The notes under the pieces were generated by a model. It made no database searches. It was not told where the DNA came from and was given only the letters and a program-made list of their open reading frames with translations. Of a stretch of 64,000 bases of DNA, positions 44,731-64,000 are shown piece after piece. The DNA is from Patescibacteria group bacterium. GTDB taxonomy: Bacteria; Patescibacteriota; Patescibacteriia; UBA9934. Both the position numbers and the translations under genes were made by a program. Location: assembly GCA_041660165.1 (NCBI GenBank), contig JBAZWW010000001.1, forward strand, positions 28,009 to 92,008. Direction: 5' to 3'. Position 1 is the first letter of the stretch, and each line of letters begins with the position of its first letter.

Positions 44731-44989
44731 AAGTGGCGGAAGTATAGAGGAGAGTCTGGGAACTGTCAACGAATAGATGTGTACTTTTTTAGCCAAAGTA
44801 AGCCAAGTAATAAGCCTTTAGTCAGGATTATCCGTCCTCATCACCCCGTTTTTTGACAAACCTTAGCGATTTAAGTAGGATCCCGGGTCCGTCCTCTCCC
44901 TCACGGGGATGATTGGACGGTGCGACTTGAGTGCAGTGATGACAGTGACGATAGAGTTTGCCGGCGGATTCCCCGCCACGGAGGCAATA

Positions 44990-47632
44990 ATGGATACCAG
45001 TTCGGTTTTCAAGGCGGTAATGCGCTTCGCAACGATGAGCTTCGTGCTCCTCGCGGCGTGTGGAACGAAGGACGGCCTCCCGTCCGGGGCAACCCGGATC
45101 AACAACGAAGCCGAAATGCGTACGTGTGCGAATGAGCAGCGGTTGTTGGCCGGACAGGACCTCGACCGCGACGGTGTGGGCGGGCCGATCCAGTGGTGCC
45201 TGGACCCGCTGGCAGTCGTTCCGCACCTCAGCACGTCCACCGGCGACTGCAATGATGAAAACCCTGCCGTGTTTCCGGGCGCCGTCGAGATCGCGAACAA
45301 GATCGACGACGACTGCGACGGCTTGGTGGACGACAGCTCGATTACGTCCGTCATGGACTGTAAGTCGAATCTGGACGGCGACAACTACGCCTCCACGCTC
45401 GGCGTCATGCACAGCGAGGATTTGGACTGCCTGGATGCGGGGGAAGCCCCGGCGTCCACGCAGGGTGGCGACTGTGATGACACGCAGGCGGGCATCTACC
45501 CGTTCGCACCTGAGACGTGCAACGGTAAGGATGATGGTTGCGATGATATCATCGACAACGCCCTGGGGTACACCGATTTCCACGCGGACAAGGACGCGGA
45601 CAGCTTCGGTTCTGCCACGGACATCGTGAACTCGTGCGCCCAACCCGCGAACTACGTGAACAACCAGAACGGCGTGGACTGTGACGACGCTCACGCGTCT
45701 GCGCACCCCGGCGGGACGGAAGTCTGCGACGCCCTCGACAACAACTGCAACGGCACCGCGGACGAGGGGTTGGGCTGTAACGCGTTCTACTTCACGGACG
45801 CGGACAAGGACAGCTACGGCAATCCCGTCACGGCTCACACCATCGCGGTAGCTGGCGACGTCACGAACGGTCTGGACTGCGACGACGCGAACGTGCTCCG
45901 CAATCCCGGCAAGGTCGAAGTCCAGGGCAACGGCCTCGACGACGACTGCGACGACGGTACGTCGGACAACCCGGGCAAGTTCTGCCGGGACTTCGACAAC
46001 GACGGCGTGGGCGACGAGCTCTACGGAACGCGCACTACGGCGCAGGCCGGGTACGTGGCGTCGTGCGACGACTGTCGCGACGACTTGAACCCTGTCCATC
46101 CGGGCGCGATCGAGGTCATCGGCGACGAGGTCGACAACGACTGCAACCCCGTCACGAAGGATACGGTCACGACCGGCACGTACTACGCGGACAAGGACGG
46201 GGACACCTACGGCGACAAGTCCGTGGTGGTCACCGTGGCCACGCCCGGGTACGTGGTGGACAGCACCGACTGCAACGACAACGACAAGACGGCTCACCCC
46301 GGCGCCACGGAAGTGGTGGGCGACGGCGTGGACCAGGACTGCAGCGGGTTCGAGGTCTGCTTCCTCGACAACGATAGCGATAAGTTCCGTGACACCTCGG
46401 GACAGCTCTACAACTCCAACGACCTCGACTGCGTGGATACGCGCGAGGCCGGAATCGGGGTCCCGACCACGGACTGCGATGACAACGACCCCACCATCAA
46501 CCCGAACGTCACGGAGGTGATCGGCGACCAGAAGGACCAGAACTGTGATGGGAAAGAGGTCTGCTACCTCGACATCGACCAGGACGGCTTCCGGTTCATC
46601 GGAAGCCCGAACGATACGTACGACAGCAATACCGATGTGGACTGTCTCGACAAGTTCGAGGCCTCGGCCGCGACTCCGGCAACGGACTGCGCCGAAATCG
46701 ACAAAAACATTCACCCCGGCGCGATGGAGATCCCGGCCGACGGGATCGACCAGAACTGCGACGGCAAGGAGGTCTGCTGGCGGGACGTGGACGACGACGA
46801 TTACCGGAAGGACACCACTTCCACGATCGACTCGTCGGACATGGACTGCGTGGATACGCAGGAAGCGGTGGCCACCACCGTGGACTGCAACGACAAGAAC
46901 GATACGGTTCACCCCAACGCGACGGAGACGTGTAACAGCGTCGACGACAACTGCGACGGCAAGGTGGACGAGAACGCCACGGGCACCACGTGGTACGCAG
47001 ATACGGACAAGGACGGTTACGGGAACGGTTCCGTGACCGCCGTCGGATGCACGGCCCCCACGGGCTTCGTGTCGGACAAGACCGACTGCGACGACGCGCA
47101 CGCGTTGAGTTACCCTGGCAAGGTCGAGGTCTGCGATGCCCTGGACAACAACTGCGACGGGCTCGTGGACAACGGTCTCACGTGCTCGAACAATCCCCCG
47201 CCTCCCCAGGGGATCTGCCCCACGGGCCAGCGGAGGTACACCGGCACGTTCCAGGTCGGGAGCGCGATCGAGGGCCCGAACATCCTCGACGTGTACGGTA
47301 GCGTGACTGGCGGAGGCGTGAACGAGTTCCCCGCTGGCAGCTGGACCAACGTGGCGCGGTTCCACGTGACCAGGCGCGGAGGCACGGCCACGTTCACGGA
47401 CGAGTCCTGTGTGGCGGATGGCGCCACGGTCCTGTTCTCGGTCTATCTCAAGGACCGCAACGGCCAGGACCACTGGAGCGCGGAAGGTGGTCGCAACGGC
47501 TGTAGCGTGACCGGGGATACTATGGCCCTGGCGAACAGTGCCACGCTCGCGCACGCGTGGATTCCCACCACGCCCGTGTGGAACGGCTACACGGACATTC
47601 GCGAGGGCTGTAACATCAAGTGGCCCTTCTAG
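44990..47632 (+). CDS. GC-rich lipoprotein with about 10 Cys/Asp-rich repeats (MopE-like putative metal-binding motif) and DxDxDG calcium-type motifs
   Basis: RBS GGAGG lies 7 nt upstream of the ATG. Signal peptide and lipobox LLAAC. Repeats of the form DCDD...HPGAxExCDxxDNDCDG and DKDGDTYGD. The opposite strand carries a 908-aa stop-free shadow ORF. Confidence 0.8.
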   Translation: MDTSSVFKAVMRFATMSFVLLAACGTKDGLPSGATRINNEAEMRTCANEQRLLAGQDLDRDGVGGPIQWCLDPLAVVPHLSTSTGDCNDENPAVFPGAVEIANKIDDDCDGLVDDSSITSVMDCKSNLDGDNYASTLGVMHSEDLDCLDAGEAPASTQGGDCDDTQAGIYPFAPETCNGKDDGCDDIIDNALGYTDFHADKDADSFGSATDIVNSCAQPANYVNNQNGVDCDDAHASAHPGGTEVCDALDNNCNGTADEGLGCNAFYFTDADKDSYGNPVTAHTIAVAGDVTNGLDCDDANVLRNPGKVEVQGNGLDDDCDDGTSDNPGKFCRDFDNDGVGDELYGTRTTAQAGYVASCDDCRDDLNPVHPGAIEVIGDEVDNDCNPVTKDTVTTGTYYADKDGDTYGDKSVVVTVATPGYVVDSTDCNDNDKTAHPGATEVVGDGVDQDCSGFEVCFLDNDSDKFRDTSGQLYNSNDLDCVDTREAGIGVPTTDCDDNDPTINPNVTEVIGDQKDQNCDGKEVCYLDIDQDGFRFIGSPNDTYDSNTDVDCLDKFEASAATPATDCAEIDKNIHPGAMEIPADGIDQNCDGKEVCWRDVDDDDYRKDTTSTIDSSDMDCVDTQEAVATTVDCNDKNDTVHPNATETCNSVDDNCDGKVDENATGTTWYADTDKDGYGNGSVTAVGCTAPTGFVSDKTDCDDAHALSYPGKVEVCDALDNNCDGLVDNGLTCSNNPPPPQGICPTGQRRYTGTFQVGSAIEGPNILDVYGSVTGGGVNEFPAGSWTNVARFHVTRRGGTATFTDESCVADGATVLFSVYLKDRNGQDHWSAEGGRNGCSVTGDTMALANSATLAHAWIPTTPVWNGYTDIREGCNIKWPF

Positions 47633-47744
47633 GGAGCCAGCGGACGACGGCCATCAGGTGACACATTCGGGAGCGTAATCCCGATTCGGAAGGGCGGCAC
47701 CGCGTGTGCCGCCCTTTTTCTATTTGTGATAAAGTGTCGGGGAT

Positions 47745-50959: not shown

Positions 50960-51139
50960 ATCCCTGATCGTAGCACGGGCATTCCCGCCTTGCCATTCAA
51001 AAGCCTATTTGATAAAGTACCCCCGGTTTGAAGGATGTTCCGTATTGTTCGGGGGTAGCTTCCGCCTTCGCTCGATTACGAGCTACGGCGGATAAACAGT
51101 GGCACATGGCCACTTCGCTACTTCAGGACAAAGATATGT

Positions 51140-51214
51140 TCGGGGGTAGCTCAGTGGCAGAGCAAGGGACTGTTAATCCCTGGGTCGTGGGTTCGAGCCC
51201 CACCCCCCGAGCCA
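51140..51214 (+). tRNA. tRNA-Asn (anticodon GUU) with encoded CCA
   Basis: Manual fold: acceptor TCGGGGG/CCCCCGA, D-arm GCTC-AGTGGCA-GAGC, anticodon arm AGGGA-CTGTTAA-TCCCT, and T-arm GTGGG-TTCGAGC-CCCAC. Confidence 0.85.
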
Positions 51215-52842
51215 GAATGCACATCTTGCGTTGCAAGGTGTGTTTTCTTTTTGTCGTGCCTTGAAAAGAGGGCAGAATAGCCGTCTTTTGCGATAAACGA
51301 GAATTCATTGTTAGAAAAACGGAGTTCGGTAAACACCTGGGCGATGATCTGATGCTTTTCTATGTCTAGCGCGTATTTGTAGTACAAACCCGCCCTTTTA
51401 ACGAGTTCGGAAAAGGTTAGGATGTATTTGAGCATTTCGTGTTCAGATTGGTGAATCTCCCCCAAAGAAGCCTGAACCTCACGGTACTCGTTTTCTAGGC
51501 GCGTTACATCTGTCGCGTAATCCTCGGGACTGATAGCTTTAGTGCGGAGGAGCGTGATCTTCTCGTTTTTCAAATAGTCGAGATCTGCATAGATCCGATC
51601 GACATGTCTTTGGAGTTCATGGCGTTTCTTGTCGCGCTCGTCAGCGACCTTATTGAGCCCTGTGCGCGTTTTGGCCTCGATCTCGGATAACTCTTCGTCT
51701 GAGAATGCAATCTTCCCCAGTAGGCCCCCGATATACTCATGTACCTTCTCATTGCTCAGGTTTGGATTCGGATTCGTGCAACCCTCTTTGCACTTTGCGC
51801 GAAAATAGAGCTGACCCTTCTGTTCGTAGGGGGAGTAGGATCGACCGCACGAACACTTGATGACCCCACGGTAGGTTACGAATAATTTATCGGGGTAATG
51901 GACGCCAGTGGCACGTTGTGCTAGCGCGGCCTGAACCTTATAAAAGAGACCAGCTTCAACGAGGACGGGGTGGATGCCATTAATCACGCTTCCTCGATTT
52001 TTCAACTTACCAATATAGAACGGATTATTCAGTATATTTTCAATGGATTTAGTATTTACGGGGCGCGATATTTTTGGAGCAAAGTTATCGTTCCCAGAGA
52101 GAATTTCTTCTTTAGTACGTTTTGGTCGAATCGGTTTGGTTGTGAGTCCTTGTTTATTTGCCCATTTTGCGAGTTGGCTAAAGCTCCACTCACCAGTCGC
52201 GTATAGTTCAAATATCCGTTTTACAGTTGGAGCGCGATCGGGATCGAGTACCTTGTTATCCGACCCATTGTCTAAATAACCGATAGGGGAAACGTACGAA
52301 CAATATCCTTTCGCTCTAATCTTTTCTAAGCCCGCACGTGTTTTCTGGCTGATATCTCGCGAAAAGTGTTCAGAAAATGTTCCATCAATATCGCGGTGTA
52401 AGGCACCTGCCGCTGTTTGTTCATACTGTGCCTGTACAAACCGAATATCAACACGCGAATCATCAATCATTCGTTTGATGACCATTGCATCCTGTTCGTT
52501 TCGGCTGAGTCTATCCCAACATAGGACGATCACCCCCTTGAATTTGGATTGCTTGAGATCCTGCATCAATCTCAGGAATTTTGGCCTGCCTATATCGAAG
52601 ACGATTTGTCCTTTCGTATTAAAATCTATTCCTGCTGTTTTATATGCCGAATGTTTTTCTCGGATGATCCCGTCCGTGTAGTAACCGTCGATTGATCCTT
52701 TTACGACAGGCAATCCGAGCGATTTAGCGTGACTCAAATTGGCTCCCTCCTGATAGTCGAGTGAGTTTTTTTGGTTATTGGCTTCGTCTGTACTTTTGCG
52801 AGTGTAGACGAGGTATTCCTGACTGTGATCGGATTCTTTCAT
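51151..52842 (-). mobile_element. Large serine recombinase (integrase). Its 3' end overlaps the tRNA-Asn 3' half on the opposite strand.
   Basis: Resolvase catalytic domain YTRKSTDE with the Ser nucleophile, followed by recombinase and zinc-ribbon/coiled-coil domains. 563 aa. Confidence 0.85.
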
Positions 52843-53036
52843 AGTGGGTTCAAGTTAGACGATACTGCACTTTTCGTAATCTTTGGAGGAGTGACGGTCA
52901 TACCTTCAAATTCATAGCCCTCGAACTCTAAACGCCTATGAATACGCTCAAGGATCGCTGAGAACGCCAAGAACCCGCCGATCTCATTCTCGGAGAATGT
53001 TTGGTTGTGGGGTTGGGACTCTTGGGGTTCAATCAC
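52839..53036 (-). CDS. Small island protein, translationally coupled to the integrase (ATGA overlap). It may be an excisionase or regulator.
   Basis: 65 aa. Its stop overlaps the integrase start. Confidence 0.35.
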   Translation of the reverse strand: MIEPQESQPHNQTFSENEIGGFLAFSAILERIHRRLEFEGYEFEGMTVTPPKITKSAVSSNLNPL

Positions 53037-53043
53037 AAATTAT

Positions 53044-53241
53044 TTACTTCGTTCCGTAGATCTTTCTGCGTTCATCAATCGAAAGCATCTTTTTAGGTAT
53101 CCATGCCCTATAGCCGCATGATGGTTTGCGTGCACAGAAGAACTGCACTGCTCGTTTGATTGCGTAGAAGCCGATGTAGCTTTGGTAGCACCACGGACAG
53201 GACGTCATTTTGAGAGTTCCCCGTTTTTTGAAGTTAGACAT
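53044..53241 (-). CDS. Small zinc-ribbon protein
   Basis: CPWC...CARKPSC is a four-Cys motif. 65 aa. Confidence 0.4.
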   Translation of the reverse strand: MSNFKKRGTLKMTSCPWCYQSYIGFYAIKRAVQFFCARKPSCGYRAWIPKKMLSIDERRKIYGTK

Positions 53242-53505
53242 AACTTTTTCTCTCCCTCGGGTTACGGGGGAGTCTTCTTGGAAGGTTTAACGGTTCGTGG
53301 TCACGGGGTAGAACCCGAGCACACTGGGATGACATCTCTGTCAGTTCTTCAGCTTCGGGCGTGGTTCGTGACCACGAAACAATGAATGAGGGTATCGTCT
53401 GGGTTTAACGTCTTCTCCGATACGTCAGACAGTTGAACGAGAGATACTTTCTATAAAACCAAAAAGCATCCCGAAGGATGCCTAGTGGTGAAGAATGTGA
53501 ATATT

Positions 53506-54378
53506 CTAAATAAAGGAGGGGGGTCTATTTGCGAAAACGATTTTTCGTTTCATTCGGTTTACAATTGAAGAAATCGCTCCACTTTCTACTGAAATTCCGT
53601 CTGCTTTTAGATCATTAGCTGTACTTAGTTCGAGGTAACCGCTCGAACTCGATCTTTGGGAAGGCGGTGTAGCTCTGTTTTTAATGTATGCGTTATATAT
53701 TCTTACATCCTCAGGGAATCGAGTATAAGCTTTCTTTCTCTTAGTCGATTGGGTATCCAGTATTTTTCTTTGTATTATTTTTACGGATTTCCAATTATTA
53801 TTTATGTAATCTAGCACTTCGGCTTTACTTGTACCAGCCATAAATTCAAACCTGATCTTTCGTTCTATTTTCTGTGGGTGTTCGTCGTAATGAACGCTAC
53901 CAACCTCACACCCGAGCATGAATATATTGGACATTATGATGTATTCGGTAGCAATGATTCTGGCGCTTGTCATACTGAAAATATCCTCGTAGATTCTGAG
54001 CGTGCCACGCGTTTTGTCTTCGGGGTCGGTAATTACCAAGGGAACGATATGTTTAACATATTCATATACCTCGTCATCAAGTTGTTCGCCGATGGAAAAT
54101 CTGGCGGGGTACAGGTTACCGTCTGCAATATAGCCCTCTTTTAGATATCTCATTGACTCATCCGATAAATGGTAGATGTCATGGGTTTCGGGCGTATTTC
54201 CAGAGATGCCCATCTGTTTACGGATTCGGGCAACGAATAATTTGAAATCCTTTTTGAGTAGGAGTAGCTGAAAGATTTCCGCCCCTCGTTTTTTTAGCGC
54301 GTCGCCACAATAGAGCGAGTTGAGGATTTGTTCGTCACGTTCGGAGAAGAAAATCTCCGTATAATCGTATTTATACAT
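53506..54378 (-). CDS. Hypothetical island protein
   Basis: 290 aa. No motif recognised. Confidence 0.45.
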   Translation of the reverse strand: MYKYDYTEIFFSERDEQILNSLYCGDALKKRGAEIFQLLLLKKDFKLFVARIRKQMGISGNTPETHDIYHLSDESMRYLKEGYIADGNLYPARFSIGEQLDDEVYEYVKHIVPLVITDPEDKTRGTLRIYEDIFSMTSARIIATEYIIMSNIFMLGCEVGSVHYDEHPQKIERKIRFEFMAGTSKAEVLDYINNNWKSVKIIQRKILDTQSTKRKKAYTRFPEDVRIYNAYIKNRATPPSQRSSSSGYLELSTANDLKADGISVESGAISSIVNRMKRKIVFANRPPSFI

Positions 54379-54566
54379 AGCGCGAACGTGTGAATCAGTG
54401 GAGGTGGATTTCGGTATTGCCGAGCGAATTAACCTAATAACCTAGCTGATATATTTAACTATAACCGAATAACCGATTTTGTATTTCCCCAGTGTTAGCC
54501 GTTTTATCAAGTAATGGCTCGATCGAGCAAGAATTTGCAAAATTGCTGGCTCATGGTATCGTTTTT

Positions 54567-54705
54567 GCCATCTACCTACTGTTTTCGCCGCACAAGGCGT
54601 TGTCTTTTTCTAACCGATTGCGGATAGAGATGGGCAGCTGCCTCCACAATCGGACAGCCTTGTGCTGACCGAAAACAGTGGGTAGATAGGTGGCTGTCCT
54701 TTTTT
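54567..54705 (+). ncRNA. Candidate structured small RNA with a terminal Rho-independent terminator
   Basis: Nested inverted repeats: gccatctacctactgttttcg paired with cgaaaacagtgggtagatagg, and cacaagg paired with ccttgtg. It ends in ggacagcc...ggctgtcc followed by tttttt. Confidence 0.3.
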
Positions 54706-54760
54706 GATACTCGGACAGTTACCTGGAGATTAATTAACTAATTACCCATATCATCTACGT

Positions 54761-55285
54761 ATGGACAAGGATGCAGCCAAAGAAACGATCAAGAAACCGA
54801 TATATAGGCGTTGGTGGTTTTGGTTGTTGGCATTTTTAGCATTCGTTATGATCGTGGGACCATTTTTGCCAGAATCGACAACGACCCCATCTCCCGTTGT
54901 GGTTTCTTCTGGGACAGGTTCTGACACGATAAACGTTGACAAGCCAACACCCGCCCCTGAGCCAGAGAAAGTAGTAGCGACCACGAGTGCTGTGAAATTT
55001 TATCAGGATTATACGACTAACAATATAGCCGCTGAGCAAAAATATAACGGTCATTTGGTGAAACTCACTGGCGTAATTTCAAGTATCGGCAGGGATATTC
55101 TTGGGAAAGCGTACATTGTGTTGAAGGGTGATCAGTATGGTTTTAAGGGAATTCAGTGCATGTTGGACGATTCATCGATGGCGAAGGTGGCTGAGGTCAG
55201 CATTGGCGACTCGGTCACTCTGACTGGCAGGGTTAAGGATAATGTTCTTACAAATATTCTTATTGACGGTTGTTTGATCGACTGA
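54761..55285 (+). CDS. Membrane-anchored OB-fold (tRNA_anti-like) protein
   Basis: TM helix, then KYNGHLVKLTGVISSIGRDILGKAYIVLKGDQYGFKGIQCML. Confidence 0.5.
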   Translation: MDKDAAKETIKKPIYRRWWFWLLAFLAFVMIVGPFLPESTTTPSPVVVSSGTGSDTINVDKPTPAPEPEKVVATTSAVKFYQDYTTNNIAAEQKYNGHLVKLTGVISSIGRDILGKAYIVLKGDQYGFKGIQCMLDDSSMAKVAEVSIGDSVTLTGRVKDNVLTNILIDGCLID

Positions 55286-58200
55286 ACCTAACTGATGCCC
55301 CAAACTCATTCCACCACCACTCCATAATCGAACGTGGGGCAATACAGGGGCACACGGCTCTTGTCGGTGGCGTGAACAGGCGGTCGAGTATCAGACTTAA
55401 CCAACAGAAGGCCATATCTCGGATGTGGCCTTTTTGTAATTTCCGAAATGTGAGAGTATCAGATGAATCTATGTTCTTAGAGCCACGCATCAAACGTTGC
55501 GAATCACTAAAGGATCTTCTCGACTCCCCCGAGGATCCAGGTTTTTTTGACGAGGATAGCGATGGTATCGACACGGTTCTTCGGTCACAGAGAGCTTTTT
55601 TGATTAGTGAGCCTGGATATGGAAAATCGAGTGTATTGCTGCAGATTATTGAGAAGAGCCAAAAGGCAAATGAATCCTGCATTTATATCGATCTCAAAAC
55701 AATTACAAACAAGTCATTGTGCGCTTTAATTAAAGATAACGAGGAAGTTTACACATCGCAGGGAGCGATTGACGACTTTTCTCGTAAACCCATTTTCCAA
55801 ACAAGCAAATTTAGAGCCAAAAATTCAAGAGAGGTAATTTTTTGTTTAGATGCCCTTGATGAGGTTAGACAGGAGTATTTTTCTGAAACGGTAGATGAAA
55901 TTAAGCGCTTTATCGCAAAGTACGATAAGGCAACCATCATCCTGACTTGTCGTAAGAATTATCTGGCAAAATGGCAACATCTTTTTGCGGATCAATCTCT
56001 GGAGTTTTTTAGTCTGCTCTGTTTTAACTCAGATCAAATTCGTTCTTATTTGGTGGCCGAGGGAATCGCTGAGGAAACGGTTGAAATTGTTTTAGAGAAG
56101 ATGAACTTCAGAAATCGGCTGCCGATTCTCCGTGTACCTCGTTATCTTGGTATGTTAGCAAGATTCGTAAAAAAGGAAGGAGCTGAGGCGCTTATTGGTA
56201 TTACTCGAGGTAGGCTATTTGATTTTTTTATTGATGAGAATTTGAGGAACGAACAGGAAAAGGTAGATTTGAATAAAAACGCGATTATTAAGAAGGTTCT
56301 TGAGAAATTGGCCTTAGTAATGGAAATCTATCAAACAAGCCAAATCAGTAAAAATGAGTTGATGGAATTTTTTGATGATGTTCAGTCCAATCTCAGTATT
56401 AGTTTTTTGAACCAGGTTCCGATCGAGATTCTTTATGAAAGATCCTTACTTAAGGAAAACCCTGAAACCGTTGAATTTGTTAACACCGAGTTTCAGGAAT
56501 ATTTGGCCGCAAAGGAGATTTGCAGGCTCGGAAAGACCGACCAAGTAGTTTTCGATTTGATGGTAATAAAAGAGTTACACGAGATACACCCATCATGGAT
56601 TAATACGCTGTCTTTCTTACTGGAAGAGGATATTTCGTTGTTACCAGACATAATTAAATATATTGCCAAAAAATCCAGCCTCGAGAACTACCACGCGTTA
56701 TTGCCCATCACTGGGGTAGATAAGCTTACGATCCTTGCCAAAGGGAAGATCTTCCAAAGTATACTAACCAATTATTGCGATAACGGTCATTGGATCGATC
56801 ACAATGTTGCGAGAAACCTTAGTTGGTACTTCGATAGTACCCAGCACAAATTTCTCGACTCATTATTCTCTTCAAAGAATAATGATGAAACTTTTGGTGA
56901 GGTTATAAAAGCGAACGTTTTATTATTGATAGGATACATCTCCGAGAGGGGCTTGTTGAGCGTGAAGCAGTCGGGAGTTTGGCAACAACGAATTATCGAC
57001 ACAATCGGTTCACCCTATCAGAACGAGGTGCTGTTAAGATTCTCAATCACTGCTCTGGGAGCCTTTAAGAATCCGACGCTTTTTTCAACCAGGTTGGCTG
57101 ATATTATTTTTGCCACCAAGGAGGACACGATTATCTCTGGCCTTATATACGCAATTGAAGATTCCGATTCGCTAACTAGTGATGCCATCAATTGTATTCT
57201 GAGAGGGATAGAGATGGGTAATATTTCTGCCAGATTACTTTTACCAAGAATTACTGATAAACCCGCAATTAACAATGTGGTAGATTCGTTGATTACAAAC
57301 GAAAAATTATTGGTGGAATTTTTGGATCACGAAAGTATTCACGTGAGAGACACAGAAAAGATCCTTAAGAACCTCGAAAAAGTCACCGATGAACATCTAC
57401 TTGTAAAGCTTAAGAAATTATTTAACAGATTTTTTTCTGACAGCACGTATTTTGATGCCCAACATTCTAAATTTGTTCTTGGTCTGGCAGTTTTGATAGA
57501 CAAGAAATCACCAGGCTTTATTTTTGAACTAATAGCAACGTACAAGGACACCGATTTTTTGCACGCCCTACCTAGCATATTTGCAGCCTTGCTGAAGGCC
57601 GATGACGTGAAGGAGTTTTCCGAGCAGATGTCTAAGCATAGATGGATCGCGTTTAATACAGTCTACATAGCGGCTTCTGCCCAAACTGATGTCGCAAAGG
57701 GTATAGAGGCTGAGGGACGAAAATGCATGAATGATGAGTTCACGTCATCAGATAAATCGCAGGTGAAGACGACGCATATCGATGCGAAGAGGGAGCGAGA
57801 CGTGTATCAATTATTTAAATACAAACTTGAACCAGAACAGAAGAAATATTCCCTTGATTTATTCCAGTACTATCGAGGGCAAGAGAATATTATTGAAAAA
57901 TACATTTCCACTGAAGAAAAAGAACGGCTAATATATCTTGTTATTGATGCATTGCAGGTTTTTGATCCAGGGACACAAAAGTTGACTATTACAAATAGAG
58001 CCGAGGGTTCGTCACAGTACACGACAAACCAGTTCATCCATGTATTCGGCGATGCTCTCAGTGTGGCTGCAGATCTGAACGTAAATGTTTCTCACCTGAG
58101 ACAACACATAGTCAACTATATACCGTTTTCATACAGTGAACACCTGAAGGCGATATTTCACTTGGTGAAGCGGCCGACTAAGGATGAGATCGTGCTATTA

Positions 58201-59472
58201 CTAAAGATTTATAAAAATAGAGCCGATGATTTGCGAGAATTCATGCCCAGTAGCCTTATTGAATTCGTTCAGGTTCATCAGTTATCGGAAGCTGTAATGA
58301 TTCTAAAGTCATTCGTAAATTCTGAGAAAGTTTCGAGCTTCGATCGTTGTGCGGCATTCAATACAATCGTTGGATTAGATGGAGAGACCAAGCTATATGC
58401 TCGGTTAATATTCAATAAGTATAGGAACAGTCGTAAACCCGCGGAGATATTGTTGCGAGATTCTGCAAATGCTCATCTGATAGAAAAGTATTCAGTTTCC
58501 GATGCAGTTAACTGGAGGATTGAAAAGCTTATTGAGAAAGCTGAGCCGTTTAAAAGGGTAAAAGGAGTCCATGCAGTTGGAAAATTGGAGGGGGAGTTGA
58601 TGGATAAGAATTTCGCAAAACCATTATATGCGCTAAAAGGTTCGGCATATCGGAAGTTATTTCTTGACCTAATAGAGAGGGCTTTGGAAGTACATGGGAA
58701 GAGTGAGGAATATCATGATTACGCTTCGTATCTTTGGTCTATCAGCATTGAATATTTTAGGAATCTAAAGCAAGCTAAAAGCTACGAATCATTACATGAT
58801 ATCGAGGAGCTTATTGAACGAAATAAGGAGCAGTCAGGTATCAATTGGTTTCTATATACCTATCAGAATCTCAAGAGAGAGTATGCAATATTTATAGGGA
58901 AACCAAACAATATCGCGGATTGCATAAAGCAATATAATTACTTTAAGACAAGTTCATATCTTGTGGTGAGTACATCCGACGATCTATTTAGGATCATCAT
59001 GGGGGCGTGCAATGATAAGATCAGATCATGGGTAGAGAGCGAGGGCGCATATCATTTGATTAGAACTTATCCAAAGGCCGAGGATCTAATTCAGAAAACA
59101 ATAAAGACACAGCTAACTAATTGCTTACTTGAAGCTGGATTACGCAAGGAAGAGATCCAGGTTCAACGAGAATCGCAGTTGCTCGATGATAAGCGCACCG
59201 ATTTTCTCGTCTACTACGGTTTCATAGGCCCCATTCTGATTGAGGTAAAACTCTCGGACAATCCTGAGATAACAAACGGTGGCAAACGTTTGCAGTATAG
59301 AAAAAAGCTTCTCCAATATCTCGATGGTACGGCCTCACATCGAGGTATCTATTTGGTGTTTCTCCTCAAATCAGAGGATCTTCGTTTTGACACAATACTG
59401 AAGAATCAGTACAAGAATGACCGTATTGAGGTGGTGTCATTAATCTGCAAACCCAAAAGTATCATCGGGTAG
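55270..59472 (+). CDS. NACHT-family STAND NTPase (1400 aa) with a long helical C-terminal region and a C-terminal PD-(D/E)xK-like motif
   Basis: Walker A SEPGYGKSS, Walker B IFCLDALDEV, sensor TIILTCRKN and the winged-helix FQEYLAAKEI hallmark. The C-terminus has TDFLVYY...ILIEVK. The true start may be an internal ATG near 55423. Confidence 0.8.
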   Translation: MFDRLNLTDAPNSFHHHSIIERGAIQGHTALVGGVNRRSSIRLNQQKAISRMWPFCNFRNVRVSDESMFLEPRIKRCESLKDLLDSPEDPGFFDEDSDGIDTVLRSQRAFLISEPGYGKSSVLLQIIEKSQKANESCIYIDLKTITNKSLCALIKDNEEVYTSQGAIDDFSRKPIFQTSKFRAKNSREVIFCLDALDEVRQEYFSETVDEIKRFIAKYDKATIILTCRKNYLAKWQHLFADQSLEFFSLLCFNSDQIRSYLVAEGIAEETVEIVLEKMNFRNRLPILRVPRYLGMLARFVKKEGAEALIGITRGRLFDFFIDENLRNEQEKVDLNKNAIIKKVLEKLALVMEIYQTSQISKNELMEFFDDVQSNLSISFLNQVPIEILYERSLLKENPETVEFVNTEFQEYLAAKEICRLGKTDQVVFDLMVIKELHEIHPSWINTLSFLLEEDISLLPDIIKYIAKKSSLENYHALLPITGVDKLTILAKGKIFQSILTNYCDNGHWIDHNVARNLSWYFDSTQHKFLDSLFSSKNNDETFGEVIKANVLLLIGYISERGLLSVKQSGVWQQRIIDTIGSPYQNEVLLRFSITALGAFKNPTLFSTRLADIIFATKEDTIISGLIYAIEDSDSLTSDAINCILRGIEMGNISARLLLPRITDKPAINNVVDSLITNEKLLVEFLDHESIHVRDTEKILKNLEKVTDEHLLVKLKKLFNRFFSDSTYFDAQHSKFVLGLAVLIDKKSPGFIFELIATYKDTDFLHALPSIFAALLKADDVKEFSEQMSKHRWIAFNTVYIAASAQTDVAKGIEAEGRKCMNDEFTSSDKSQVKTTHIDAKRERDVYQLFKYKLEPEQKKYSLDLFQYYRGQENIIEKYISTEEKERLIYLVIDALQVFDPGTQKLTITNRAEGSSQYTTNQFIHVFGDALSVAADLNVNVSHLRQHIVNYIPFSYSEHLKAIFHLVKRPTKDEIVLLLKIYKNRADDLREFMPSSLIEFVQVHQLSEAVMILKSFVNSEKVSSFDRCAAFNTIVGLDGETKLYARLIFNKYRNSRKPAEILLRDSANAHLIEKYSVSDAVNWRIEKLIEKAEPFKRVKGVHAVGKLEGELMDKNFAKPLYALKGSAYRKLFLDLIERALEVHGKSEEYHDYASYLWSISIEYFRNLKQAKSYESLHDIEELIERNKEQSGINWFLYTYQNLKREYAIFIGKPNNIADCIKQYNYFKTSSYLVVSTSDDLFRIIMGACNDKIRSWVESEGAYHLIRTYPKAEDLIQKTIKTQLTNCLLEAGLRKEEIQVQRESQLLDDKRTDFLVYYGFIGPILIEVKLSDNPEITNGGKRLQYRKKLLQYLDGTASHRGIYLVFLLKSEDLRFDTILKNQYKNDRIEVVSLICKPKSIIG

Positions 59473-59490
59473 CCTCATTGTTTTCGTCAT

Positions 59491-60303
59491 ATGGATCCGA
59501 AAAGCTTCACAGAGCAATTGTTGTTTTCGACAGTTCTTATCAGGATGCTTGATGTAAAGATGCAACCATTTGGACACGGAACTGGCTTCTTATATTTATT
59601 GGACCTTGCACCAGGTGGGGGCCAGCAAAAGATCTTGCTAGTATCAAATAAACACGTGTTAAACAAATGCAGGGCGATCAGTATTGATTTCCACGCGCAA
59701 CAGAATAATCTACCGATTTTAGATAATGTAATAACAGTTCAGCTGCGCTATGATGATGTCTGGCACCATGATACGGCTGATGTTGCGTGCATCGACATAA
59801 CTGAAAGCGTTAAGGAGTTTCAAGAGCGAATTTATATAAGGTGTGTTGGTGAAGACTCATTACTAGATAGTTCCGATGAACTTCTCGACGTTCACCAGGA
59901 CATTTTCTTTGTAGGATATCCGTTACGTATTTACGATAAGAAGAATTATTTGCCCATCGTCAGGTCAGGAATCACTGCATCACATCCGAATATTCCTTTT
60001 AATGGCAAACCTGAATTTATTATTGATGCATCTGTGTACGAGGGCTCAAGCGGTAGCCCTGTATTTCTTGATTTGTTAAAACCAAACCTAGCTTTAGGGA
60101 AGCTAGCAATGGGTGCAGCGCCTAAATGCATCGGGATTATTTCGACTAACTTTAACGTTCTTTCGGAGTTGAAGGAGGTTTCGCTCCCTAGTGAAAAACT
60201 TGCCTCTTCCCAGGTAGTTGGTCTGGCAACGGTCTGTAATAGCCAGACCATCAGGGAGGTCGTTGGGCAGGTATCGGCTAGTTACAAATTGCGAAATCCC
60301 TGA
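59491..60303 (+). CDS. Cytoplasmic trypsin-like serine peptidase (Trypsin_2/S1-like)
   Basis: Catalytic triad His (SNKHVLN), Asp (DVACIDI) and Ser (GSSGSPVF). No signal peptide. It lies 18 bp after the NACHT gene. Confidence 0.75.
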   Translation: MDPKSFTEQLLFSTVLIRMLDVKMQPFGHGTGFLYLLDLAPGGGQQKILLVSNKHVLNKCRAISIDFHAQQNNLPILDNVITVQLRYDDVWHHDTADVACIDITESVKEFQERIYIRCVGEDSLLDSSDELLDVHQDIFFVGYPLRIYDKKNYLPIVRSGITASHPNIPFNGKPEFIIDASVYEGSSGSPVFLDLLKPNLALGKLAMGAAPKCIGIISTNFNVLSELKEVSLPSEKLASSQVVGLATVCNSQTIREVVGQVSASYKLRNP

Positions 60304-60699
60304 CTTCGATCGCCTTGAGTCTTTCTGCACTAAACTTAACTGCTTGATAAATTGTTGATAGTTCAGAAAACAGGTACTCTGGGGAGCCATAAAAATATGA
60401 CATCTTGGTGTCATATTTTTAATTTACGGGCAGGAGAGCAAGCAAATACTTTGGCGTACGTTAGGGCGAGAACGGCGGTGTGGTGTTTCGTTACCAGATA
60501 GAACCGCGAGATGGTGGATTGTCGTGGGGAGCGGTGTTGAGCCGAGAGCCGAAGCCGAGTCCCACCACCTGAGTCATTAGCGGGTGTGTGGGATGTCCAT
60601 GTGCCTGATCAACAACAAGCCAAGCAATCCGCTGGCTTTTCATATTTTCATTTATCATGCTATACCATTTATGCTCAACGAAATGTTCGAAAAACAAAC

Positions 60700-61728
60700 A
60701 TGACCTACGACGAGCTCGTAAAGTTCATTCAGGGCCATTTCACCGATGGGTTGGTTTTGGTATTGGGCTCAGGGCTATCCGCGGCCGAGGGAATTCCTGA
60801 TATGCCTGCCCTTGCTACATACCTTTCAGAACAAGCGATTGAGCTGACCGGTGCTGATAAGGCGGCCTGGTTAAACATAAAAACAGTGCTTGATACGGGA
60901 GAAGGACTTGAAGCGGCTCTGCTAAGACATGCTCCGTCTTCGACTTTGGAAGCGTGGATTGTTCGAAAGACCTGCGAGCTGTTGATGCCGATAGAACGCA
61001 AGATCATGAGCGCTATGTTCAGGGGCGACACGACACTCCGTTTGAGCAAGTTTCTTTCTAAGATTCTCAAGCCGACGGAAGGATTACCCATTCTAACGAC
61101 AAATTATGATCGGTTGATCGAGATTGCCTGTGAGATGGAGGGATTCCATGTTGATACAGCAGCGGTTGGAAATTACGCAGGTACATTTGATCATGAGCGC
61201 AGCCTCATGGGATCAAGCAAAAGAATAGCAACTCGTGGAAAAACACCTTTCCTTGAGCATTACCCGCGAGCCGTCGTTCTTAAGCCGCACGGTAGTTTTG
61301 ATTGGTACAGATCAGGGGATTCTGCGAGGCGGTGTGGTTTTGATCTGGTGGGTGTGGAAAGACTGATAATCACCCCCGGAACCAACAAGTATAAGGCCGG
61401 GTACGAAGCACCATTCGATAAACACAGAGATTTGGCAAATTCCTATATTGATAAAGCGGCGAAACTATTTGTAGTAGGCTATGGTTTTAATGACGATCAT
61501 CTGCAGACTCACCTGATTAAAAAAATTAATGATGGCCTACCGACATTGATCTTAAGCCGCTCTGAAAACCCTAAAATTCAAAAGCTGGCAAAGGAGGCGC
61601 TGCGTTGTGTAGCACTCTCTAAATTAAACACGGGTACAGGTGTTTCTGTTACAACGAAGGATACCCACTTCGAACACCCTGGTGACGATCTATGGGATTT
61701 AGGCGTTTTAACTAAAGAACTTCTATAG
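60700..61728 (+). CDS. SIR2-like (SIR2_2) NAD-utilising defence protein
   Basis: LVLVLGSGLSAAEGIP, ILTTNYDRLIE and VLKPHGSFDW. I chose the ATG at 60700; the ORF-track start is 60586. Confidence 0.85.
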   Translation: MTYDELVKFIQGHFTDGLVLVLGSGLSAAEGIPDMPALATYLSEQAIELTGADKAAWLNIKTVLDTGEGLEAALLRHAPSSTLEAWIVRKTCELLMPIERKIMSAMFRGDTTLRLSKFLSKILKPTEGLPILTTNYDRLIEIACEMEGFHVDTAAVGNYAGTFDHERSLMGSSKRIATRGKTPFLEHYPRAVVLKPHGSFDWYRSGDSARRCGFDLVGVERLIITPGTNKYKAGYEAPFDKHRDLANSYIDKAAKLFVVGYGFNDDHLQTHLIKKINDGLPTLILSRSENPKIQKLAKEALRCVALSKLNTGTGVSVTTKDTHFEHPGDDLWDLGVLTKELL

Positions 61729-61729
61729 T

Positions 61730-63499
61730 ATGACTGACATTACAAGTTTGAGTTTTGAAGATGTAAGTCAGCTCGGCAAGGTGGTGGGGGTTGATACCAG
61801 TCGAGTGCTTATTGCGGTGGATAATGCGACACTCTTGCCTCGTGCAGCTGTCGGTAGCCTTGTCGCAATTCAAGGCAGCACGGCTCAAGAGTTTCTAATC
61901 GGCATGACAGAACGGGTGACTCGCCAGCTTCGTGAACAGACGGCTCAGCCTGATTCTATGACCCCCACCGTGCTTTCAGTCGAAGTAGTTCCGGATGACG
62001 CTATTCGTGTTGTATTGCTCGGGACCTATCGTACGGTTGATGGAGCAGTTCGTAATCGGTTTAAGCGTGGTGCCGATTCATTTCCACAGATTGATCGCCA
62101 TTGTTTTTTGATCGAGGGGCAGAATCTTCAGCTGTTCATGGGTTTGCTGGGAAAGGACCTGGGGCCGGAGCAACGACTTGAGCTCGGCCACTTCGTGTTA
62201 GATAGTTCCGCTACGGCTATTGCGAACGGAGACAAGTTTTTTCAGCGTCATGCGGCTATCCTCGGTAGTACCGGTTCCGGTAAGAGCTATGCAGTATCAC
62301 TAATTTTAGAGCGTGCTAATGCACGCAAGTATCCGAACATTATCGTTTTTGACATGCATGGAGAGTATGCATCATTGGCTAATCCGCCGGTGCAGACAAA
62401 CGGGACTCCGAGGACTGCGATCGCTACCGCTTTTAAAATAGCTGGTCCAGGAGATTTGGATTTACCAAAACCCAACACGATCTTTCTTCCATATTGGCTC
62501 TTAAATCGCGACGAGATGCTGTCCATGATTCTTGATCGCAGTGATCAGAATGCCCCCAACCAGGCTTCTCGATTTACTCAGCATGTGAGGGATCTTAAGG
62601 GAGCGGCTGTTGCGAGTAAGCCTAGTGTACAAGCTACGTTTACCGTTGATTCCCCAATCCCATATAATCTTCCAGATCTACTGCAGAAATTACAGCACGA
62701 TGATACCGCTAAGGGGACCGGCGTTAGCGGAAAAGAGGTAAAAGGTGACTGGGAAGGTAAATTGACTCGTTTTATTTCTCGACTGGAAACGAAGTCAGCT
62801 GATCGGAGGTATGGGTTTATGTTCAAGCCACCGAGCGCGGCTCTTGAGTATGACTGGCTTGCGACGCAAATTTTACAACTCCTGACTCCAGGCAAAGATA
62901 AGCACGGCATAAAAATTGTCGATTTTTCGGAAGTACCACCAGACGTGCTTCCGGTAGTCACCGCTATCTTCGCAAGACTTCTTTATGATGTCCAGTTTTG
63001 GATGGATCCTGACAAGCGTACGCCCTTTGTCTTTGTTTGTGACGAAGCGCATCTTTATTTACCAGTTAAAGATGATGCAGACGCCGTCGAGAAGCAGGCG
63101 CTCTATTGTTTCGAACGCATTTCTAAGGAGGGTCGCAAGTACGGAGTTTCGCTGCTCGTAGTTAGTCAGCGCCCATCCGATGTCAGCCGAACTATTCTCA
63201 GTCAGTGCAACAATTTTCTTGTTTTAAGACTTACAAATGATCAAGATCAAAATGTGGTTCGTCGACTGGTTCCCGACTCCATGGCAGGCATCCTTGATGG
63301 ATTACCACTACTCGATACCGGAGAAGCATTATTGCTGGGCGATGCGATTTTGTTGCCTGCTAGATTGAAGCTCAAGCTGCCCATGATCGAACCGTTGAGC
63401 CAAACACGGAATTTCTGGCAGGAATGGGAAACTAAAGTACCTAACTCAGATGCCATCTCTCTTGCTGTGGAGGCTCTTCGTCGCCAATCTCGTACATAA
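61730..63499 (+). CDS. HerA-like (FtsK/HerA superfamily) ATPase partner of SIR2
   Basis: Walker A ILGSTGSGKSY, Walker B FVFVCDEAH and VVSQRPSDV. It directly abuts the SIR2 gene. Confidence 0.85.
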   Translation: MTDITSLSFEDVSQLGKVVGVDTSRVLIAVDNATLLPRAAVGSLVAIQGSTAQEFLIGMTERVTRQLREQTAQPDSMTPTVLSVEVVPDDAIRVVLLGTYRTVDGAVRNRFKRGADSFPQIDRHCFLIEGQNLQLFMGLLGKDLGPEQRLELGHFVLDSSATAIANGDKFFQRHAAILGSTGSGKSYAVSLILERANARKYPNIIVFDMHGEYASLANPPVQTNGTPRTAIATAFKIAGPGDLDLPKPNTIFLPYWLLNRDEMLSMILDRSDQNAPNQASRFTQHVRDLKGAAVASKPSVQATFTVDSPIPYNLPDLLQKLQHDDTAKGTGVSGKEVKGDWEGKLTRFISRLETKSADRRYGFMFKPPSAALEYDWLATQILQLLTPGKDKHGIKIVDFSEVPPDVLPVVTAIFARLLYDVQFWMDPDKRTPFVFVCDEAHLYLPVKDDADAVEKQALYCFERISKEGRKYGVSLLVVSQRPSDVSRTILSQCNNFLVLRLTNDQDQNVVRRLVPDSMAGILDGLPLLDTGEALLLGDAILLPARLKLKLPMIEPLSQTRNFWQEWETKVPNSDAISLAVEALRRQSRT

Positions 63500-64000
63500 G
63501 GATGGTGCGGTAGATGCATTTTGATTTTAAGATCACGCGCCTCTCATTGAGAGCCAACTCGGACTTTAGCTTGTCGAGTAGATCGCGCGTTTTTTTTCGT
63601 GTGTCCTTCTTGAAAATATATTTTGTACACGTGTATACGTCTATGCCGGGCATCATTTCGGCAATTTTTCCGATAACGGCATAGCCACCTAGGTCGGAGA
63701 ACAGGGTTGCTAGTTTTTCCCGTTAGAACCATACTGTGGATATTATCAATTACCATTTGAATCTATGTTCCTTATCCCTGGGCAGTTATTAACGATGATA
63801 ACGTTTCCTGGCGTTTTGACCTATGAGTTATTGTATCTTGCGTTTTCCAGATCCGCCCATTTACAGGGAACTCCCAATACAAAAAAATTGCCGACTAATT
63901 TTCAACAAGCAGCCACGGTAATTGCGGGTCCATTTGTTATTAGTTCGATGCTCTGTTTTATTTTTGCGTTTATCGCCGGTGTCGGTAATTTTCAGGACGT

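Follow-up and report, generated by a model that had tools for sequence, protein, structure and literature searches.

Bacterial NACHT proteins that carry an effector at the C-terminus, behind the repeats, have already been described, with a restriction endonuclease (REase) among these effectors, and it has been argued that the curved repeats place such a C-terminal effector where an N-terminal one would be (Kibby et al., bioRxiv 10.1101/2022.07.19.500537). For the wider class of STAND proteins (signal transduction ATPases with numerous domains) a 2026 preprint classified 589 clades, of which 198 were defence-associated. Here we compare with these systems a locus in a 64,000 nucleotide stretch of contig JBAZWW010000001.1 from a Patescibacteria group bacterium (assembly GCA_041660165.1), which we call the window and to whose first letter all positions refer. 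The locus consists of a gene for a large NACHT protein followed by a gene for a trypsin-like serine protease, and the original prediction had taken the two for an undescribed defence pair. Our analysis indicates that they are probably two independent single-gene defence modules, co-transcribed as neighbours in a tRNA-Asn defence island together with a Sie-like gene and a SIR2–HerA system. This reading builds on four points that could be established directly, namely the folds, the conservation of catalytic residues, the setting in the island and the absence of co-conservation.

Proteins of the bNACHT25 type resemble the NACHT protein of the window in being encoded by a single gene, in combining a NACHT switch with helical repeats and an REase-fold effector, and in residing in defence or mobile islands. 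They differ in the arrangement: the Mrr-like REase of bNACHT25 is N-terminal, whereas the window protein begins with a stub of about 45 amino acids (aa) and carries the Pfam domain DUF8371 at its C-terminus. Avs proteins (Avs4, PDB 8dgf) likewise unite an NTPase of the STAND class, a sensor made of repeats and a nuclease of the PD-(D/E)xK type in one polypeptide. In contrast to the window protein, they have the nuclease at the opposite end, and the order of the Foldseek matches puts the window NTPase nearer to NACHT modules of the NLR type (nucleotide-binding leucine-rich-repeat receptors). The binding of phage proteins by Avs drives oligomerisation and DNA cleavage. The PADLOC models for Avs did not match the NACHT protein, and one of 30 relatives matched Avs2 at ~1e-4. 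By analogy, the window protein would work like bNACHT25 and Avs3/Avs4, namely as a nuclease-armed STAND sensor.

Two NCBIfam families with the label 'NACHT domain-containing antiphage protein', HyoA (NF058534, 1430 positions) and EruA (NF058535, 1318 positions), are of similar size. Residues 1152–1299 of the NACHT protein align to positions 1237–1379 of HyoA (7e-12) and its NTPase region aligns to EruA (5e-14); partial matches to HyoA and EruA were also obtained for 26 and 15 of 30 family members, respectively. The similarity to HyoA spans the C-terminal domain, which suggests a related architecture for HyoA. The window protein does not belong to either family, as it scored 51.3 bits against a cut-off of 1000 for EruA and 43.8 bits against 1200 for HyoA, and the curated cut-offs were reached by none of 37 relatives scanned. 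The paper in which EruA and HyoA were named did not turn up in a literature search. The NACHT family that carries DUF8371 may well be among the 589 STAND clades mentioned above.

The protease matches the PADLOC candidate PDC-S45 from end to end and also matches the phage protein family phrog_7688; the relatives are stand-alone proteins of ~265 aa that are often found in prophages. Compared with PDC-S45 the window protease has nothing distinctive. It merely follows a NACHT gene here, and the defence function of its family has candidate status. In RT-Protease_XI and LmuA the same Trypsin_2-type domain is fused to a sensor or an enzymatic partner, whereas here the domain is bare. The type II gasdermin systems, i.e. 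operons encoding CARD–NLR–protease–gasdermin, resemble the locus in that an NLR-like NTPase is accompanied by a trypsin-like protease with a gene of its own. These systems, however, need CARD-like adaptors on both partners as well as a gasdermin gene; at the NACHT–protease locus of the window neither CARD-like adaptors (Pfam, model) nor a gasdermin among the neighbouring genes were found.

Whether the two genes belong together was examined from both sides. For the NACHT family, 82 loci (80 at species level and the two closest homologues) were searched for the protease with tblastn, even at E = 10, and with a hidden Markov model (HMM) of the protease family on the open reading frames (ORFs) of all six frames. 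We counted a locus as well flanked (n = 63) if its NACHT gene was almost complete in length and was followed by at least 1.2 kb of sequence. For the protease family, 160 loci (80 metagenomic and 80 viral) were searched with an HMM of the NACHT family, 91 of them being well flanked by at least 4.2 kb of upstream sequence. The protease was found at none of the 63 well-flanked NACHT loci and at none of all 82, and the loci of the closest homologues (47–49% identity) also lack it. Conversely, the NACHT family was absent from the 91 well-flanked protease loci and from all 160. With tblastn and both reciprocal HMM searches negative, we reject a conserved NACHT–protease pair. Downstream ORFs of similar size on the same strand at four NACHT loci (L008, 268 aa; L162, 316 aa; L062, 259 aa; L039, 289 aa) were considered as proteases and rejected; among them are one PhzF-like protein and one PDC-S26/PDDEXK_4 protein.

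The closest relative of the island, located in a metagenome-assembled genome (MAG) of Candidatus Uhrbacteria and denoted L001, has the same succession of tRNA, recombinase, OB-fold and NACHT genes with 93% nucleotide identity up to window position 59493. The match picks up again at 60236. In between, an internal deletion of ~740 bp (L001 10996-11110 compared with window 59473-60303) has left of the protease gene no more than its start codon and ~25 codons at the 3' end. The NACHT ORF of L001 is intact with 97% amino-acid identity and stops 7 codons earlier at a TAA. Further 3' of the NACHT gene (L001 11209-17922) follow a TPR protein of 434 aa, an unknown protein of 538 aa and a type III restriction-modification (R-M) system, in the place that SIR2–HerA takes in the window. 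The difference between the window and L001 is one of cargo swapping at a fixed tRNA-Asn island. Among the surveyed loci the adjacency of NACHT and protease genes is thus found in the lineage of the window only, plus the deletion remnant in L001. The two zero counts at the well-flanked loci and the deletion in L001 show that the adjacency is particular to this lineage and that the NACHT gene can be kept without it, as expected of independent modules packed in a variable defence island. The predicted defence pair is therefore not borne out. On the reading as independent modules no new kind of system is revealed, and the NACHT-plus-protease architecture is an accident of island packing.

The NACHT gene itself is most likely shorter than originally predicted. 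A mechanically called ORF of 1400 codons with a TTG start does exist at 55270..59472 on the forward strand. Its first ~60–67 codons, however, overlap the 3' end of the gene at 54761–55285 and a hairpin at 55406–55434. Gene callers place the start in independent assemblies at GTG 55450, with one call slightly more upstream, and a protein of 1340 aa (P0001) is 100% identical to the NACHT protein. Most likely the gene spans 55450/55471–59472 and encodes 1340 aa (from GTG 55450) or 1333 aa (from ATG 55471) rather than 1400 aa. Consequently just ~45–52 residues precede the Walker A motif and not ~90 as had been stated. The claim that an N-terminal effector domain is missing holds, since neither Pfam nor the structure model revealed one and the N-terminus is the ~45-aa stub. 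Residues of the NACHT protein are numbered from ATG 55471 in the following.

The NACHT module (55471..56910, forward strand) comprises the nucleotide-binding domain, helical domain 1, the winged-helix domain and helical domain 2 (NBD–HD1–WHD–HD2), as delineated by an AlphaFold2 (AF2) model, Foldseek, Pfam and motifs. It is complete, as predicted, with Walker A at G49–S53 (EPGYGKSS, 55615–55629), Walker B at D127–E131 (CLDALDEV, 55849–55863), the sensor arginine R161 (ILTCRKN, 55951–55953) and the winged-helix motif FQEYLA (FQEYLAA, 56491–56508). In alignments of 30–51 homologues with identities down to 29%, the residues G49, G51, K52, D127, D130 and E131 are invariant and R161 is nearly so; within FQEYLA no variation occurs at Y344, L345 and A346, and almost none at F341, Q342 and E343. 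The AF2 model of residues 1–480, computed from 51 sequences, reached a predicted local distance difference test score (pLDDT) of 84 and a predicted template modelling score (pTM) of 0.84. In a Foldseek search of the PDB this model matched NLRC4 best (1.4e-12), followed by NLRP3, NOD2 and NAIP5, all of them NACHT modules of animal NLRs. All of the top 40 matches were NLRs, and Avs4 appeared further down (6e-6). Pfam assigned NPHP3_N with 27.3 bits at a gathering threshold (GA) of 24.8, and precomputed matches of the Pfam NACHT model (PF05729) are found on many of the homologues. Its motifs and its modelled fold identify the large protein as a true STAND NTPase of the NACHT clade with an NLR-type module.

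Behind the NACHT module follows, in agreement with the predicted long helical region, an all-helical stretch of HEAT-like repeats (56911..59067, forward strand), which presumably acts as the sensor. At residues 515–620 the profile built for the family picks up HEAT-like alphaRep proteins. The middle helical region is less conserved than the winged-helix domain or the C-terminal domain.

The C-terminal domain (59068..59448, forward strand) resembles restriction endonucleases of the PD-(D/E)xK type in its modelled fold and its motif and corresponds to DUF8371. The motif TDFLVYYGFIGPILIEVK on which the original prediction had based a putative nuclease is present, with a spacing of D-x13-E-V-K instead of D-x12-E-V-K. 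In the model of residues 1040–1333 (pLDDT 87) the last ~130 aa form an α-β-β-β-α-β-α-β domain that contains the elements of an αβββαβ core (model positions H164–182, E190–194, E206–210, E213–222, H231–247 and E252–259; H, helix; E, strand). The candidate catalytic residues are placed on these elements as follows: E1204 (59080–59082) lies on the first helix, D1244 (59200–59202) opens the second strand, and E1258 (59242–59244) and K1260 (59248–59250) form an E-x-K on the third strand. These four residues and, in addition, E1234 do not vary in sets of 30 and of 51 sequences with identities down to ~29%. This layout is that of a canonical PD-(D/E)xK domain, such that the predicted nuclease is supported at the level of modelled fold and motif.

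In newer Pfam releases the domain is listed as DUF8371 (PF28130), a domain of unknown function, which was not mentioned in any paper covered by our literature search. A scan of 1.84 billion representative proteins yielded 310 clusters at 50% identity, in which DUF8371 always forms the extreme C-terminus of proteins of ~1310–1400 aa or of shorter fragments. A profile search with the C-terminal domain picked up only short pieces of members of this family; a different architecture did not turn up.

The NACHT family comprises at least 265 homologues of ~1340 aa with 29–49% identity over the full length. In a scan of one genome per species 91 loci were found, distributed over Patescibacteria/Saccharibacteria, Bacteroidota, Nitrospirota, Planctomycetota, Acidobacteriota and other phyla. 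We clustered all neighbours within 4 kb at 80 species-level loci and scanned the 139 nearest neighbours with PADLOC and Pfam, and found no conserved partner gene in the clusters or in the scan. Serine recombinases are the commonest neighbours (9 of 80 loci); R-M genes, Schlafen/AlbA_2 proteins and transposases are also recurrent. Many ordinary metabolic genes adjoin family members in other genomes as well. As to single members, two homologues (P0088 and P0097) have an additional N-terminal helix-turn-helix domain of the excisionase/MerR type, and a third (P0109) carries a HAD-type phosphatase C-terminally behind the nuclease domain. In a Lewinellaceae locus (L039 11090-11956) a PDC-S26/PDDEXK_4 protein, another PADLOC candidate, is encoded just 3' of the NACHT homologue.

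The protease gene (59491..60303, forward strand) encodes 270 aa. Its predicted catalytic triad was found as H55 (SNKHV, 59653–59655), D97 (DVACID, 59779–59781) and S187 (GSSGSPVF, 60049–60051), and all three residues are invariant in 25 homologues. The Pfam model Trypsin_2 scored 36.4 bits at a GA of 27.6. The PDC-S45 model (PDLC05022) matched with 5.4e-51, covering residues 1–263 of the protease and positions 11–285 of the 293-position profile, and phrog_7688, a family of unknown function, matched with 5.6e-40. RT-Protease_XI (2.3e-7) and LmuA (9.5e-5) gave weaker matches with their protease parts. In the alignment of homologues the N-terminus is conserved and belongs to the protease fold, and Pfam revealed no adaptor or sensor domain, which leaves a bare catalytic domain. 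The 'S' series of PADLOC candidates, and with it PDC-S45, denotes single-gene candidates.

In total 385 homologues of ~265 aa were found, and the identity of the protease to other members is 31–40%. Relatives were found on more than 100 viral contigs of IMG/VR, which are mostly of prophage size. In these contigs (L163-L242) the gene is often no more than a few kb away from an end, which fits accessory ('moron') genes of prophages. PDC-S45 has also been reported in a Sinorhizobium prophage (PMC12429752). None of the genes around the family is a universal partner in the 80 metagenome loci, where recurrent neighbour clusters comprise 7 loci or fewer each. Judged by its sequence, the protease is a member of PDC-S45, an already catalogued, mobile and often prophage-borne family. 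This family is widespread without NACHT partners, prophages included. The novelty that had been claimed for the architecture is lost with the catalogued protease and with the C-terminal REase effectors already described for bacterial NACHT proteins; in PADLOC the two genes part, as the protease matches a catalogued model and the NACHT protein matches none.

Both genes are AT-rich, as had been noted, with a GC content of 0.397 for the NACHT gene and 0.427 for the protease gene compared with 0.524 for the remaining window. Both proteins have identical counterparts in public assemblies, and the same island is present in two independent assemblies. The predicted link of the island to a tRNA-Asn gene and its position beside SIR2–HerA were confirmed with ARAGORN, Pfam and PADLOC. 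The island integration site is the tRNA-Asn (GTT) at 51140..51214 (forward strand), since the same junction of tRNA and recombinase is found in L001. The island integrase is a large serine recombinase at 51151..52842 on the reverse strand (Pfam Resolvase 1.3e-16, Recombinase 1.8e-14). An ORF of 290 aa (53506..54378, reverse strand) is island cargo that is conserved in L001 and has no match in Pfam, PADLOC, NCBIfam or PHROGs. The gene that immediately precedes the NACHT gene encodes a membrane-anchored OB-fold protein of 174 aa (54761..55285, forward strand; Pfam tRNA_anti-like 4e-20; N-terminal transmembrane helix), a candidate for Sie-like superinfection exclusion. Its match to phrog_8545 ('superinfection exclusion Sie-like', 1.9e-16) makes it probably a further defence gene of the island. 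The gene is kept in L001 and is no general neighbour of the NACHT family.

The upstream gene is ended by an intrinsic-terminator hairpin at 55406..55434 (forward strand; terminator scan, -18.5 kcal/mol, z = -5.4), which the mechanical 1400-aa ORF includes in its 5' portion. Behind the protease gene an AT-rich hairpin with a T-run (60390..60421, forward strand; folding, -13.5 kcal/mol, z = -4.9) probably terminates the unit transcribed from the NACHT and protease genes, and an equivalent hairpin trails the protease remnant in L001. SIR2–HerA follows as a separate neighbouring system on the forward strand, with a SIR2 of 342 aa at 60700..61728 (gene call; PADLOC SIR2 4.8e-110) and HerA at 61730..63499 (PADLOC HerA 5.8e-221; Pfam DUF87 7.9e-29). 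A direct repeat of the tRNA-Asn 3' end (attL/attR) was not found within 51000–64000, so that the distal island boundary probably lies beyond the window end. A DNA search against E. coli genomes gave no match.

On the reading as two independent modules, the first would be the ~1340-aa STAND protein with its N-terminal stub, NACHT switch, ~700 aa of HEAT-like repeats and C-terminal DUF8371 nuclease fold. In analogy to bNACHT and Avs proteins, the HEAT-like repeats would recognise a phage protein or an infection-induced change. Autoinhibition would then be released and the NACHT module would oligomerise in an NTP-dependent manner, such that the C-terminal nuclease domains are brought together. 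The active nuclease could cut DNA indiscriminately, by which phage replication would be stopped and the cell sacrificed. The trigger, the oligomerisation-dependent activation of the nuclease and the functional independence of the two genes are presumed here. The second module would be the putatively cytoplasmic trypsin-like protease of the PDC-S45 / phrog_7688 type, which probably has a candidate abortive-infection or exclusion role of its own. What remains of the locus is thus a new candidate family of a known kind, a putative bacterial NLR-like sensor with DUF8371 as predicted C-terminal nuclease, beside a catalogued candidate protease.

If this reading is true, a widespread bacterial NLR-like family of ~1340 aa would have DUF8371 as its nuclease effector, which provides a function hypothesis for a Pfam domain. 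The family, which is missing from PADLOC v2.0, could join the catalogues of defence systems. It would furthermore represent a clean natural case of an effector placed after the sensor repeats, useful for understanding how NLR oligomerisation activates a distal effector.

A number of observations weigh against the reading as two defence modules. On the side of the NACHT protein, the Pfam NACHT model (PF05729) reached 22.8 bits, just under its GA of 26.7. A Foldseek search of the PDB with the C-terminal model returned nothing significant (several of the weak matches were PD-(D/E)xK nucleases), and a profile search of the PDB sequences with the C-terminal domain gave no significant match either. 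The Pfam PD-(D/E)xK models all remained below threshold on this domain, with weak hints of PDDEXK_3 and SfsA-RE. None of the PADLOC v2.0 models, which we take to include models of bNACHT proteins, matches the NACHT protein, such that its putative defence role is assigned by analogy alone; the antiphage function of both genes is something we infer. On the side of the genetic arrangement, many of the comparison loci are short MAG or metagenome contigs. In addition, the protease ORF begins 18 nt past the NACHT stop on the same strand, as originally described, and the intergenic region is unstructured (folding, z = +0.2). With no terminator in between and strong hairpins flanking the pair, the two genes probably form a single transcript as far as the sequence tells, which is compatible with a local functional link.

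The missing nuclease matches in the Foldseek and sequence searches would also fit a DUF8371 that is no active DNase and serves as a nuclease-fold module for DNA or ligand binding or for oligomerisation, with the output located elsewhere. Inactive PD-(D/E)xK folds that serve as binding modules exist and provide a precedent. We consider this unlikely, since the invariance of E, D and ExK in 51 sequences down to ~29% identity is unexpected for a decayed active site and since the NACHT protein contains no other effector domain.

It is similarly improbable that the NACHT–REase family is not antiphage but acts against plasmids, in mobile-element addiction or in regulation, with the island location being incidental. 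In agreement with such a role, PADLOC did not match the window protein and gave only weak matches among 30 family members (mad8 for 10, PDC-M54A for 1 and Avs2 for 1), and metabolic genes are frequent neighbours in other genomes. The island of the window is, however, dense in defence genes (Sie-like, PDC-S45, SIR2–HerA), to which L001 adds the type III R-M system, and recombinases, R-M genes, Schlafen/AlbA_2 proteins and transposases recur beside family members. Moreover, all bacterial NACHT and Avs proteins with a nuclease effector studied to date are antiphage, and the two most similar NCBIfam families carry antiphage names.

The arrangement on a probable shared transcript with its flanking hairpins speaks for one two-gene defence system after all, in which the protease would for example be a second effector activated by the oligomer or would process the NACHT protein. 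Such a system would also be in line with the AT-richness of both genes relative to the genome, with an ancestor of the window and L001 in which NACHT and protease genes were already adjacent, and with trypsin-type peptidases being known as effectors fused to bacterial NACHT proteins. Nevertheless we regard it as very unlikely. The reciprocal searches of 63 and 91 well-flanked loci were negative, the closest NACHT homologues lack the protease, and the NACHT ORF of L001 stayed intact after the protease deletion. Neither the bare protease nor the ~45-aa NACHT stub carries an adaptor (CARD, EAD or Death-like) that could link them, and PADLOC lists the protease as PDC-S45, in its series of single-gene candidates.

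There is an equally slim chance that this lineage has joined the NACHT–nuclease with the PDC-S45 protease in one functional unit with two effectors, i.e. a recently assembled NLR-plus-separate-protease system without adaptors, in which the free protease might be turned on by the activated NACHT oligomer or might itself prime the sensor; in a weaker form this proposal retains the DUF8371 family as a putative single-gene antiphage system with a C-terminal nuclease. That the protease is functionally part of the downstream SIR2–HerA system, as its position behind the NACHT gene and ahead of SIR2–HerA, all in one orientation, might suggest, is scarcely credible in view of the strong hairpin with T-run and the ~400-nt gap before SIR2, the protease remnant in L001 where SIR2–HerA is absent, and the low recurrence of any neighbour cluster around metagenomic members of the protease family.

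Apart from the island, the window contains at 44800-47700 a segment of ~3 kb in which two long ORFs overlap, one of 907 aa on the forward strand, whose product gave weak repeat-protein matches only in a PDB search, and one of 908 aa on the reverse strand. The segment has a GC content of 63% compared with ~52% around it.

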